From the NCBI RefSeq assembly GCF_988242995.1, contig NZ_OZ547043.1: a stretch of DNA of 64,000 nt. The stretch is one strand, 5' to 3'. The notes beneath the pieces are model-generated. The model searched no databases, was not told the origin of the DNA, and saw only the letters and a program-made list of their open reading frames with translations. Shown here piece by piece: positions 10,953 through 39,346 of the stretch; the stretch's first letter is position 1, and each line of letters begins with the position of its first letter. Both the position numbers and the translations under genes were made by a program.

Positions 10953-12254
<1,302 letters not shown>

Positions 12255-12307
12255 TTCTGGTACGCCTGGCAGATATTTTGCCTGCCGGGCTAACAGTGTG
12301 ATACATT

Positions 12308-12363
12308 GCTGTGTCGGGTAAGCCATTACGCTATCCGACACAGTGTTAAATCCTCGCTTTTTT
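12308..12363 (+). terminator. candidate terminator / REP-like hairpin after purA
   Basis: Inverted repeat gctgtgtcgg...ccgacacagtg followed by T-rich run. Confidence 0.4.
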
Positions 12364-12458
12364 CCTTCCCCGAACTGAAATAAATTAGCGACACAGCTTG
12401 TGGCTGGTTTATCATCAATATAAATGTATTTTTTCCCGTTTTCCCTTTTGAGGTTGAT

Positions 12459-12884
12459 GTGCAGTTAACGAGTTTCACTGATTACGGATTACGTGCGCTG
12501 ATCTACATGGCGTCATTGCCAGAAGGGCGGATGACCAGTATTTCTGAAGTGACTGACGTCTACGGCGTCTCCCGTAATCATATGGTCAAAATAATCAATC
12601 AACTTAGTCGTGCCGGCTACGTGACTGCTGTTCGTGGAAAAAATGGCGGCATTCGTCTGGGTAAACCGGCGAGTGCGATACGTATTGGTGATGTGGTGCG
12701 CGAGCTGGAGCCCTTATCGCTGGTGAATTGCAGCAGTGAGTTTTGCCACATTACACCTGCCTGTCGGTTGAAACAGGCGCTTTCTAAGGCCGTGCAAAGT
12801 TTTCTTACGGAACTGGATAACTACACGCTTGCCGATTTGGTTGAAGAGAATCAACCGCTTTATAAATTATTGCTGGTGGAGTGA
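12459..12884 (+). CDS. nsrR: nitric-oxide-sensing transcriptional repressor NsrR (Rrf2 family)
   Basis: 141-aa ORF, GTG start; Rrf2 HTH and Cys ligands ([12 protein letters not shown]). Confidence 0.93.
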
Positions 12885-12922
12885 CGAAAATCTTCATCAG
12901 AGATGACAACGGAGGAACCGAG

Positions 12923-15364
12923 ATGTCACAAGATCCTTTCCAGGAACGCGAAGCTGAAAAATACGCGAATCCCATCCCTAGTCGGGAATTTATCCTCGAA
13001 CATTTAACCAAACGTGAAAAACCGGCCAGCCGTGATGAGCTGGCGGTAGAACTGCACATTGAAGGCGAAGAGCAGCTTGAAGGCCTGCGTCGCCGCCTGC
13101 GCGCGATGGAGCGCGATGGTCAACTGGTCTTCACTCGTCGTCAGTGCTATGCGCTGCCGGAACGCCTCGACCTGGTGAAAGGTACCGTTATTGGCCACCG
13201 TGATGGCTACGGCTTTCTGCGGGTTGAAGGGCGTAAAGATGATTTGTATCTCTCCAGCGAGCAGATGAAAACCTGCATTCATGGCGATCAGGTGCTGGCG
13301 CAGCCGCTGGGTGCTGACCGTAAAGGTCGTCGTGAAGCGCGTATTGTCCGCGTACTGGTGCCAAAAACCAGCCAGATTGTTGGTCGCTACTTTACCGAAG
13401 CGGGCGTCGGCTTTGTGGTTCCTGACGACAGTCGTTTGAGCTTCGATATCTTAATCCCGCCCGATCAGATCATGGGCGCGCGGATGGGCTTTGTGGTGGT
13501 GGTTGAACTGACCCAACGCCCGACTCGCCGTACCAAAGCGGTGGGTAAAATCGTCGAAGTACTTGGCGACAATATGGGCACCGGCATGGCGGTTGATATC
13601 GCTCTGCGTACCCATGAAATTCCGTATATCTGGCCGCAGGCCGTTGAGCAACAGGTTGCCGGGTTGAAAGAAGAAGTGCCGGAAGAAGCAAAAGCGGGCC
13701 GTGTCGATTTGCGCGATTTACCGCTGGTCACCATTGATGGCGAAGACGCCCGTGACTTTGACGATGCAGTTTACTGTGAGAAAAAACGCGGCGGCGGCTG
13801 GCGTTTATGGGTCGCGATTGCCGACGTCAGCTACTATGTGCGTCCGCCAACGCCGCTGGACAGAGAAGCGCGTAACCGTGGCACGTCGGTGTACTTCCCT
13901 TCGCAGGTTATCCCGATGCTGCCGGAAGTGCTCTCTAACGGCCTGTGTTCGCTCAACCCGCAGGTAGACCGCCTGTGTATGGTGTGCGAGATGACGGTTT
14001 CGTCGAAAGGCCGCCTGACTGGCTACAAATTCTACGAAGCGGTGATGAGCTCTCACGCGCGTCTGACCTACACCAAAGTCTGGCATATTCTGCAGGGCGA
14101 TCAGGATCTGCGCGAGCAGTACGCCCCGCTGGTTAAGCATCTCGAAGAGTTGCATAACCTCTATAAAGTGCTGGATAAAGCCCGTGAAGAACGCGGCGGG
14201 ATCTCATTTGAGAGCGAAGAAGCGAAGTTCATTTTCAACGCTGAACGCCGTATTGAACGTATCGAACAGACTCAGCGTAACGACGCACACAAGTTAATTG
14301 AAGAGTGCATGATTCTGGCGAATATCTCGGCGGCGCGTTTCGTTGAGAAAGCGAAAGAACCGGCACTGTTCCGTATTCACGACAAGCCGAGCACCGAAGC
14401 GATTACCTCTTTCCGTTCAGTGCTGGCGGAGCTGGGGCTGGAACTGCCGGGCGGTAACAAGCCGGAACCGCGCGACTACGCGGAGTTGCTGGAGTCGGTT
14501 GCCGATCGTCCTGATGCAGAAATGCTGCAAACCATGCTGCTGCGCTCGATGAAACAGGCGATTTACGATCCGGAAAACCGTGGTCACTTCGGTCTGGCAT
14601 TGCAGTCCTATGCGCACTTTACTTCGCCGATTCGTCGTTATCCTGACCTGACGCTGCACCGCGCCATTAAGTATCTGCTGGCGAAAGAGCAGGGGCATCA
14701 GGGTAACACCACTGAAACCGGCGGCTACCATTATTCGATGGAAGAGATGCTGCAACTGGGTCAGCACTGTTCGATGGCGGAACGTCGTGCCGACGAAGCA
14801 ACACGCGATGTAGCTGACTGGCTGAAGTGTGACTTCATGCTCGACCAGGTAGGTAACGTCTTTAAAGGCGTAATTTCCAGCGTCACTGGCTTTGGCTTCT
14901 TCGTCCGTCTGGACGACTTGTTCATTGATGGTCTGGTCCATGTCTCTTCGCTGGACAATGACTACTATCGCTTTGACCAGGTAGGGCAACGCCTGATGGG
15001 TGAATCCAGCGGCCAGACTTATCGCCTGGGTGATCGCGTGGAAGTTCGCGTCGAAGCGGTTAATATGGACGAGCGTAAAATCGACTTTAGCCTGATCTCC
15101 AGCGAACGCGCACCGCGCAACGTCGGTAAAACGGCGCGCGAGAAAGCGAAAAAAGGCGATGCAGGCAAAAAAGGCGGCAAGCGTCGTCAGGTCGGTAAAA
15201 AGGTAAACTTTGAGCCAGACAGCGCCTTCCGCGGCGAGAAAAAAACGAAGCCGAAAGCGGCGAAGAAAGACGCGAGAAAAGCGAAAAAGCCATCGGCGAA
15301 AACGCAGAAAATAGCTGCAGCGACCAAAGCGAAGCGTGCGGCGAAGAAAAAAGTGGCAGAGTGA
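12923..15364 (+). CDS. rnr: ribonuclease R
   Basis: ORF 12881-15364; start at ATG 12923 ([14 protein letters not shown]...) gives 813 aa; RNB domain, S1 domain, Lys-rich tail. Confidence 0.95.
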
Positions 15365-30970: not shown

Positions 30971-31278
30971 AGATACCTCCTCGACGGCTGACTTTGTGTG
31001 CTCTCCTCTGTGATGATCTTCTGATTTAATTTTAATCAATGATAAAGAAGTTGATGGTGACCATTTCTGATGCAGTTGTTCAAAAAAACACCATGATGAA
31101 GTGTGATGAACTTCAAATCAGCGTGTTAGTACGATTTGGTGAAAGATGAGATTTATTTGTCGGCTGGCCTTGAGTTTAGCAGGGTATGTCAGTACTATAA
31201 TGCGTCATTTTTCAGCCGACCTTTAACACGTTCCTTGCCTCCCCGGGATTCGGCTGACCCAGACAGGAGGCTGAATAA

Positions 31279-31692
<414 letters not shown>

Positions 31693-33824: not shown

Positions 33825-34277
33825 TTATTCTACGCTGTCGGTATCGGTGCGTTCGTTAATCAGCAGGTTAACCAGCCACAAAAAGCCATTGAAAAAATCA
33901 TCGATTTTACCTGGGGTTATTATATTGCTAATCCCTGGTTTTTAAAAATTTTGCATAGTGAAAACCAAAGTAAAGGTGTGCATTATGCAAAATCACAGCG
34001 TCTCTTAGAAATTAATCATGCGCACTTGCGGTTAATGGAATCCTTATTGGATGAAGGGAAGAAACACAATATTTTTAAGGCAGATAGCGACCCATTGCAG
34101 GTGAATATTAATATTGCTGCGCTTGGGGGATATTATTTGATCAACCAGCATACGCTTGGCCTGGTTTATCATATCAGTATGGTTTCACCCCAGGCACTGG
34201 AAGCCAGACGTAAGGTCATCAAAGAGACGCTCCTTAGCTGGCTTCTGGTTGACCCTTCATCTACCGCGCGCGAATAA
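33825..34277 (+). pseudogene. ytfA: TetR-family regulator remnant YtfA lacking the N-terminal HTH domain
   Basis: ORF track gives 33951-34277 (TTG start, 108 aa); frame stays open upstream to the stop at 33822-33824; the 5' bound given here is the first in-frame codon after that stop, not an intact start; a short ATG-led MTDNALHHTFLLCGM* fragment lies just upstream in another frame. Confidence 0.6.
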
Positions 34278-34899
34278 AACTGCCATCCGGCTGACGGGTA
34301 AACAGGACCTGTTGATTATTCCCCGTATCAATGGTTAAGCCCGTCACCACGCCGCTGGCGTTCTGGCGGATTTTCACCATCTGCCCGTTTTGCAAATTAC
34401 TCAGCGGCTTACCCGCGCCTTCTACCTGCGCCATTGCATAGACATCGGTAGCGGGCAGCCCGTGGTCGCGGAACAGCTGTGCCATCGTTTTACCGGGTTC
34501 GACACGGTAAGAGCGCCATTGATTATCAATTCCGCTATCTGGCTGGAATGGTTGCGTTTGGGGGGGTTGCGGCTGCTCTTCTGGCTGGCCTTCCTGTATT
34601 GGTTCTGGAGCGACCGGAGCCACCTGATCAGGATCATTTTGTGGCGTGACTAATTGCGCCCGCAGCTGTTCTTCTGTCGGCGGTTGTGATTGCGACTGAA
34701 TATCTAACTGCGCTTCACGCGTCACCACCGGCGCGTTGGGCGTATCATCAGATGGAAGCAGAAATCCGACCACCAATACAATGGCGGCAATAATGATCCC
34801 CCGACGATGCATCGGCGGCAGCGGGTCCATGAAGCGAAAATTGTCCGGCGCGTGCCAGACTTTCTCCAGGGTTGGTTTTAGTTCAAAGCGCCCGGGCAT
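34261..34899 (-). CDS. ytfB: OapA-domain cell-division protein YtfB
   Basis: ORF 34261-34935; start at [15 protein letters not shown] gives 212 aa; TM segment, Pro/Gln-rich linker, C-terminal OapA/LysM-like domain. Confidence 0.85.
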
Positions 34900-37502: not shown

Positions 37503-38165
37503 TCACTCACCCGCCAGTGCGCGCGGGAACAGCACATTATTTTCCAGGCTGATGTGCTCCATCAGGTCATCAATCAGTTCATTAATGCCGTTATACATCG
37601 CTTTCCAGGTGGTGCAGGCTTCCGGCGGCGGTGTGACGTTATTGGTAGTGTGTTTGATTACTTCCAGCAGTTCACCCGCTTCATCGTGCTCGCTTTCCAT
37701 TACGCTGATTGGCCCCATTGCCTGGCTGCCCATGCCTTGTTTGATCATCGGGAAGAGGATCTGCTCTTCTTTCATCATGTGGCTGGAAAGCTCTTCATGC
37801 AGCATAGTCAGGTATTTTGTCAGCCCTTTTGGCACGCTCGGTTTGTCGGCGTGAACGCGTTCGACTTTAGTCGCTTGCAGGATCAGCTCCGGCAGTTGCT
37901 CGCGGTGACGATCGTGGTAGCGCACGATGATATGGTCGATGATTTCTGCCAGCGGGGCGCTACGCCAGTCTTTCTCAATCGGTTGTTCAGCAAGCTTTGC
38001 CAGCTCAGCTTCAATGACCTCAACATCCAGTTCTTTACGTGCCGCCGCACGCGCCAGCGTTTGCTTACCGCCGCAGCAGTAATCCATATCATATTTACGA
38101 AACAGAGCCGAAGCGCGAGGAATAGAGAGCGCCAGTTCACCTAAAGGTTGGTCGCGATAAGCCAT
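37503..38165 (-). CDS. ytfE: iron-sulfur cluster repair di-iron protein YtfE (RIC)
   Basis: 220-aa ORF, ScdA N-domain and hemerythrin-like His/Glu motifs. Confidence 0.95.
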
Positions 38166-38191
38166 AGCTGATACCTCATTCTTAATAAGAT

Positions 38192-38214
38192 AAGATGCAT
38201 TTTAAATGCATCTT
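38192..38214. promoter_or_regulatory. NsrR operator in the ytfE promoter
   Basis: Perfect 11-1-11 inverted repeat aagatgcattt-t-aaatgcatctt, 27 bp upstream of ytfE start codon. Confidence 0.85.
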
Positions 38215-38272
38215 TAAGGCAAAAGCTATAACCCTTACGTAGCAGAGGCTTATTTAACTCACTGCCAGCGTG

Positions 38273-39238
38273 TCAACTTTCTGAGACAGATTCAGTTAAA
38301 GGTTTTTCTGGTTTTGCTCTGACCGCAATGACCACGCCAACCACTAACAGTGCGATACCGCTCAGCGTCATTAGTGGCGGCATTTGCTGGCGTAACAAAA
38401 AGGTGTACAGCAAACCTGCCAGCGTTTCGAAAACAATCAGCGGCCCGAGAATCACTGTCGGTAATCGCTGGCTGGCGACGTTCCAGCAGAGTGCGCCAAC
38501 CCATGAGCAAAGCACGGCTATTGCAATCATCAGACTAATAAACACCAGCGGACGGGGGCCAAAAGGTAGGGAGAAGTCCGGCGTTTGCGTATTCAGCCAG
38601 TAACAAGCGACGAGATAGCCGATAAGCGAAACCGGCAGCGTGACCAGCGCCTGCGCCGTCGCCCACATCATCGGATGTTTGTCGGGATTTTCCCGCAGCC
38701 AGCGGGCGTTGCGCAGGGCATACCATGCCCAGCAGACCACGGAAACTAACGCCAGCACGATGCCAGAGGTATAACGTGCCCAGTCAAAATCGGGGAGTCC
38801 GTGGTTTAACTCAGCAATATTCACACTCGCCAGGCCGATGCCAATACAAATCAGTGCCGGGGCGAGTTTTCCCCACGCGAGTTTGCCGTCGCGCTGGCTA
38901 TAAAGCAGATTGGCAAAGACAGGAATGACCACCGGCAGGGTGCCGATAATCATCGTGGAAACAGGCGCGCCAGTACGTTGAATGGCACTGGCAAGGCAGA
39001 AGTAATAAATGAGGTTGCCCATCATAGTGAGCATCAAGGCGGTAAGCCAGTCGCGACGCGCCAACTGACGCAGACGCACGCGCCCCAGCCAGGCAATGGG
39101 CAGCGCAATTAACCCTAACGCCAGATAACGCCCCATAGACTGCAACATCGCCGGGTATTCCGGCACGATCAACGGCCCGACAAAAATAAGCCCCCACATC
39201 AACCCTGCTAACAGGGCGTACAGCACGCCGCTAATCAT
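38273..39238 (-). CDS. ytfF: EamA/DMT-family inner-membrane transporter YtfF
   Basis: ORF 38273-39247 (324 aa); start at Met-4 gives the 321 aa I recall; either start possible. Confidence 0.85.
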   Translation of the reverse strand: MISGVLYALLAGLMWGLIFVGPLIVPEYPAMLQSMGRYLALGLIALPIAWLGRVRLRQLARRDWLTALMLTMMGNLIYYFCLASAIQRTGAPVSTMIIGTLPVVIPVFANLLYSQRDGKLAWGKLAPALICIGIGLASVNIAELNHGLPDFDWARYTSGIVLALVSVVCWAWYALRNARWLRENPDKHPMMWATAQALVTLPVSLIGYLVACYWLNTQTPDFSLPFGPRPLVFISLMIAIAVLCSWVGALCWNVASQRLPTVILGPLIVFETLAGLLYTFLLRQQMPPLMTLSGIALLVVGVVIAVRAKPEKPLTESVSES

Positions 39239-39346
39239 TACTGGCATCCATTGGTCTGTCAGAAGAAACGTTCAGGAAGCAGATATGATTGCTCCCGGCA
39301 TCCCGTCATTATCAGAGAGGATGCGGGAGGATGCCACTTTAATTAA

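Follow-up and report, generated by a model that had tools for sequence, protein, structure and literature searches.

NsrR is a [4Fe-4S] repressor that represses its targets without NO, and nitrosylation abolishes this repressor activity (PMC9052748). The operator of ytfE is a textbook switch, and ytfE is among the genes most strongly induced by NO in enteric bacteria. An NsrR motif upstream of ytfE (dnrN) was predicted by comparative genomics by Rodionov et al. in 2005 (PMC1274295). In a Salmonella nsrR mutant, ytfE expression is increased 544-fold (PMC2884951), and in EHEC the ytfE promoter serves as an NO reporter (PMC7336997). For YtfE itself, a role as an NO-forming nitrite reductase with feedback on NsrR has been proposed (PMC9052748). 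In E. coli CFT073, the ytfE operator, AAGATGCATTTAAAATGCATCTT, is the top-scoring NsrR site of the genome (PatSer ln P, -25.13; PMC5320621, Table 4). This 23-mer is ChIP-seq positive for NsrR in vivo, and CFT073 ytfE is induced 69.6-fold by nitrate (PMC5320621).

The locus described here carries the identical 23-mer in front of the same gene, so that it differs from the CFT073 case (Mehta et al. 2015, PMC5320621) in the strain and not in the site. The K-12 ytfE site (Bodenmiller & Spiro 2006; Partridge et al. 2009) has the same position and flanks and is served by an identical NsrR, but it has A at position 17 of the ytfE strand where the present DNA has G, which makes the K-12 palindrome imperfect. 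The NsrR sites of E. coli hmp, hcp, ygbA, yeaR and tehA share the 11-1-11 architecture and the repressor (PMC5320621). The core of the motif of Rodionov et al. 2005, gATGyAT-N5-ATrCATc (PMC1274295), is exactly present in the operator, and the 23-bp definition used for E. coli is this core plus two bases on each side. The operator and its interpretation are correct and have already been published, including this exact sequence; what is added here beyond the literature is confined to allele frequencies and a cross-species picture.

The operator and the genes around it

The window, that is, the whole 64-kb stretch of DNA analysed, belongs to the chromosome of Escherichia coli. A segment of 231 bp around the operator matches 5,415 of 5,426 complete genomes and is always annotated there as ytfE/ytfF. 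The relevant features are listed below.

12459-12884, plus strand: nsrR, NO-sensing Rrf2-family repressor, GTG start, 141 aa (NF008240, 292.8 bits; cut-off, 182)
12923-15364, plus strand: rnr, RNase R (NF008648, 1789 bits)
37503-38165, minus strand: ytfE, di-iron protein (RIC/YtfE), 220 aa (NCBIfam NF008221, 417.3 bits; Pfam Hemerythrin and ScdA_N)
38174-38177, minus strand: Shine-Dalgarno-like GAGG, read from the sequence, its last base 8 nt before the ytfE ATG
38192-38214, minus strand: predicted NsrR operator (sequence, shuffles, matrix score, and identity to the ChIP-seq-positive CFT073 site)
38192-38202, plus strand: promoter-proximal half-site, AAGATGCATTT on this strand (15.6 bits, half-site matrix)
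38198: polymorphic base, C on the plus strand of the window (G on the ytfE strand), T/A in K-12
38204-38214, minus strand: promoter-distal half-site, AAGATGCATTT (15.6 of a possible 15.65 bits, half-site matrix)
38273-39247, minus strand: ytfF, DMT-family transporter (open reading frame; name from the RefSeq annotation of matching genomes)

On the plus strand, positions 38192-38214 read aagatgcattttaaatgcatctt, in which a single central base separates two 11-base arms that are exact reverse complements of each other. Read on the ytfE strand, this is the perfect 11-1-11 palindrome AAGATGCATTT-A-AAATGCATCTT, of the general form AAGATGCATTT-N-AAATGCATCTT; the symmetry that had been claimed for the site in the original prediction is thus exact, base by base. 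When up to 3 mismatches were allowed, the pattern AAGATGCATTTNAAATGCATCTT matched once in the 64-kb window and in none of 100 dinucleotide-preserving shuffles. The operator lies inside the 107-bp ytfF-ytfE spacer, in agreement with the location predicted for it, downstream of the ytfF stop codon and upstream of ytfE, with 26 nt between the edge of the palindrome and the ytfE ATG. Since ytfF and ytfE are co-directional, the operator region is not a divergent promoter region, and ytfF is context and no part of the switch. The ytfE protein differs from that of K-12 by one residue.

The repressor gene was found at the coordinates predicted for it, and its product is the K-12 repressor: the protein agrees with K-12 NsrR at every residue (100% identity) and contains Cys91, Cys96 and Cys102. 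Regulator and strong target are therefore both present in the window, as had been pointed out, with nsrR and the ytfE operator 25 kb apart. The start of rnr follows the nsrR stop codon by 38 nt, and this junction is identical to that of K-12. No terminator was found between nsrR and rnr, and the sole terminator-like site in 12200-13000 is upstream of nsrR. The co-transcription of nsrR with rnr that the original prediction had assumed fits this 38-nt gap without a terminator and, according to the citation given in PMC2884951, was reported by Cairrao et al. 2003.

Matrix scores and occurrence of the motif across species

The NsrR matrix was symmetrised and built from 25 distinct 11-1-11 sites of CFT073 (PMC5320621, Table 4), with ytfE excluded. 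On this matrix the window operator scored 31.55 bits, the maximum possible being 31.71, which bears out the match to the NsrR consensus claimed for it, and the K-12 allele scored 30.94 bits. The 25 training sites themselves ranged from 12.0 to 26.8 bits, and in a random-sequence null (n = 200) the highest maximum was 21.7 bits and the mean maximum 13.6 bits. The sites of hmp, hcp, ygbA, yeaR and tehA are more degenerate than the window operator, at 12-27 bits on the same matrix. Several of them are co-regulated by FNR or NarL/NarP.

A scan of the rest of the window for weaker sites, which had been proposed along with the original prediction, was run and gave no further NsrR site above chance. 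No second full site was found in the 64 kb, the next-best 23-mer (12.3 bits) scoring below the null mean maximum. After removal of the two ytfE halves, there was likewise no excess of half-sites in the window, with 1 observed and 0.96 expected at 14 bits or more, and 2 observed and 2.4 expected at 13 bits or more.

Highest among the extra half-sites is AAGTTACATTT (43781-43791, 14.4 bits), in the cysQ-ytfI spacer upstream of ytfI, and near it is a weak full-site match (43745-43767, 11.4 bits) that is below the null maximum. Another half-site-like sequence, AAAATACATTT, is found on the minus strand at about 12421-12432 (13.6 bits), 27 nt upstream of the nsrR GTG, and just before it is a promoter-like pair, GCGACA-16-TATCAT (12388-12415). 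The main text of the CFT073 ChIP-seq paper mentions no peak at nsrR, purA or the cysQ-ytfI genes (PMC5320621). Given that the number of half-sites equals that expected by chance and that no CFT073 peak is mentioned, AAAATACATTT and AAGTTACATTT were not counted as NsrR sites, and autoregulation of nsrR is, on the same grounds, not supported.

The occurrence of the motif in other organisms was assessed by scanning a collection of species-representative genomes with AAGATGYATTTNAAATRCATCTT, which returned at least 120 loci, a sample and not a census. The nearest open reading frames were classified with phmmer and Pfam, and a locus with two labelled neighbours was counted under both. Among the matches listed, 111 of 120 loci adjoin ytfE, hmp, nsrR, a truncated globin or tehB: ytfE is a neighbour at 42 loci, the flavohaemoglobin gene hmp at 44, an nsrR homologue at 32 and tehB at 5, a truncated globin is the only such neighbour at 1 further locus, and the remaining 9 have none of these genes. 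The nsrR loci among the matches listed also adjoin a truncated globin in 19 of 32 cases and hmp in 12 of 32. The neighbour genes are those of the NsrR regulon described by comparative genomics, and the motif-bearing organisms among the matches listed include many Enterobacterales, Acinetobacter, Legionella, Methylobacter and Bacillaceae.

The ytfE-linked sites among the matches listed, which come from other Enterobacterales species, fall largely into two forms, 19 of 42 being identical to the perfect 23-mer of the window and 18 of 42 having the K-12 form; of the remaining sites, 3 have T/G and 2 have T/A as their two position-7 bases on the ytfE strand. Each half-site thus independently tolerates C or T at this position. 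The C/T at position 7 corresponds to the 'y' in the core gATGyAT published earlier (PMC1274295), and the y/r position of the full motif is the position that is polymorphic at the window operator. The central base is A on the ytfE strand in 42 of 42 ytfE-linked sites among the matches listed, and at 28 of the 36 loci among them where the distance could be measured, 26 nt separate the site from the ytfE ATG. The K-12 operator is thus the imperfect allele, and in Enterobacterales species among the matches listed the perfect form is as common.

Proposed switch and alternative readings

We consider it highly probable (about 0.95) that the palindrome is the operator through which NsrR represses ytfE, a role that in this strain is predicted from the sequence and the literature. 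In the window, this reading is based on the sequence and position of the site, its near-maximal matrix score, and an intact NsrR, to which the conservation of site and spacing in front of ytfE in many species among the matches listed is added. In vivo occupancy of the 23-mer, dependence on NO and nsrR, and the cluster chemistry are taken from the literature rather than from this strain. An NsrR dimer would be expected on the two AAGATGCATTT half-sites, which probably overlap the core promoter directly in front of ytfE, and, when bound, would block ytfE transcription. NO would nitrosylate the [4Fe-4S] cluster, upon which NsrR should leave the DNA and ytfE should be strongly induced. An intact operator together with an intact nsrR simply confirms the standard nitrosative-stress circuit in this strain.

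Two candidate -10 hexamers were noted in the core promoter region.

38199-38204, minus strand: candidate -10 hexamer TAAAAT at the palindrome centre (inferred; 5/6 match to TATAAT, poor -35)
38187-38192, minus strand: TATCTT as another candidate -10 hexamer, overlapping the operator at its proximal edge (inferred; poor -35)

A sigma-70 promoter scan of the ytfF-ytfE spacer gave no match at the threshold of the tool. Bodenmiller and Spiro, in 2006, reportedly placed the inverted repeat of ytfE over the -10 element. On the basis of this placement and of the weak hexamer matches, the operator may overlap the -10 element.

Instead of binding a protein, a palindrome of this kind could also act chiefly as a hairpin in RNA and serve as an intrinsic terminator or insulator at the end of the ytfF transcript. 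A lenient terminator-like pattern is indeed present on the minus strand, with a 10-pair stem, a 3-nt loop and the tail ATCTTATTAA, and the hairpin of the window allele has a predicted energy of -10.7 kcal/mol and a z-score of -3.8. However, the stem has G-C at only 3 of its 10 pairs and the tail, AUCUUAUUAA, has no U run, so that neither the G+C-rich stem nor the U run of an intrinsic terminator is found. In the allele carried by the majority of E. coli strains, which is that of K-12, a C-A mismatch interrupts the stem, and the hairpin falls to -4.0 kcal/mol with a z-score of -1.5, no better than 20 of 200 shuffles. The same stem-breaking allele occurs in 18 of the 42 ytfE-linked sites among the matches listed; its presence there and in most E. 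coli genomes indicates that the pairing is not maintained. In front of hmp, nsrR and tehB, the motif also occurs in unrelated contexts without an upstream gene that needs termination, and no Rfam family matched the ytfF-ytfE spacer. Termination of ytfF as the main function was rejected on the grounds of the weak stem, the lack of a U run, the pairing that is not kept, and the occurrence of the motif elsewhere, and we regard it as very unlikely; the G allele could still have a minor secondary effect on ytfF read-through.

Binding chiefly by another regulator, with the likeness to the NsrR consensus being incidental, appears more improbable again. The obvious candidate would be the paralogous Rrf2 protein IscR, since NsrR and IscR are of one family and the NsrR of the window weakly matches IscR models. 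Against it, the operator is near the maximum of a matrix specific to NsrR, and across phyla the motif travels, among the matches listed, with nsrR and NO-detoxification genes. Full derepression of ytfE in an nsrR deletion with iscR intact has been reported for both K-12 and Salmonella. In CFT073, moreover, the identical operator was recovered with NsrR in vivo (PMC5320621). As for a chance palindrome without function, the A+T-rich context of the spacer is all that speaks for it. The absence of any match at up to 3 mismatches in the 100 shuffles, the 31.55 bits observed against null maxima that reach 21.7 bits, and the fixed distance from ytfE at which the operator is kept across genera (among the matches listed) leave this reading with a negligible probability; conservation and shuffle controls already refute it.

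Operator alleles in E. coli and other elements of the window

The operator of K-12 MG1655 is AAGATGCATTTAAAATACATCTT, with 1 mismatch, its proximal half being AAGATGTATTT instead of AAGATGCATTT; position 38198 is the sole difference between the window and K-12 across the whole 107-bp spacer. A 30-mer query, for which a megablast match is possible only if the operator is exact, found the perfect allele in 959 of 5,426 complete E. coli genomes (~18%), once in each and always on the chromosome. The carriers include Nissle 1917, UPEC 536 and an ST131 strain. With 61-mers, the exact K-12 sequence was found in 1,865 genomes and the exact window sequence in 873, counts that are confounded by flanking polymorphism, and the 30-mer count was used instead. 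The A allele was present in 10 of 10 further strains sampled across the ranking, 2 of them with rare extra changes inside the operator. The perfect symmetry is, in these terms, one of two natural alleles, both of them common, at position 7 of the half-site, which accepts either C or T.

Over positions 28000-50000 (22 kb), the best complete genomes were 98.8-99.2% identical to the window and none exceeded 99.2%. The closest full-length match over these 22 kb, NZ_CP076709.1 (98.8%), carries the A allele, and the 231 bp around the operator are 100% identical to those of strains SA186 and TUM11352. Given the A allele in the best 22-kb match and the complete local identity to other strains, the sequence comparison suggests that the ytfE operator locus is a local mosaic.

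Whether the G/A difference at 38198 matters to the cell was considered with caution. It is conceivable, though rather unlikely in our judgement, that it acts as a natural tuning knob of the nitrosative-stress response. If it did, tighter binding of the scarce NsrR by the perfect allele might raise the NO threshold of ytfE induction or titrate more repressor, and the hairpin of the G allele (-10.7 kcal/mol) could cut read-through from ytfF. With either effect, lineages with the perfect allele would have a nitrosative-stress set-point unlike that of K-12.

The rare changes within the operator were seen in E. coli strain 48 and FDAARGOS_1077. One of this pair has TTTAGAAT next to the central base, and the other has GCATCT, a change of T to C at half-site position 10; both may be natural mutants of the operator. 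Otherwise, operator and ytfE leader hardly vary among E. coli strains, while about 10 bp just upstream do. The variants at 38215-38226, where a -35 element would be expected, are GCTTTTGCCTT, GCATTTGCCTT, GCATTCACCTT and GCTTTCAACAT.

Several further elements were noted in the window. An IS200C-type tnpA lies on the minus strand between ytfK and paeA, from 46092 to about 46550, and the STnc490 RNA associated with it (Rfam RF01405) is at 46560-46683. In most complete E. coli genomes, the alignment to 28000-50000 is broken into 2-3 pieces with 97% coverage, and these genomes are thus apparently without this IS200C-type copy. Beside ytfB, at about 33877-34278, is a truncated pseudogene of the TetR/AcrR family (ytfA in K-12), according to the annotation of the closest genome. 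Rfam matches above the gathering score were obtained for the RpsF leader (31215-31299), the ES239 sRNA (42737-42859), the STnc450 sRNA (48143-48200) and naRNA4 (57816-57892), all of which are expected enterobacterial elements.
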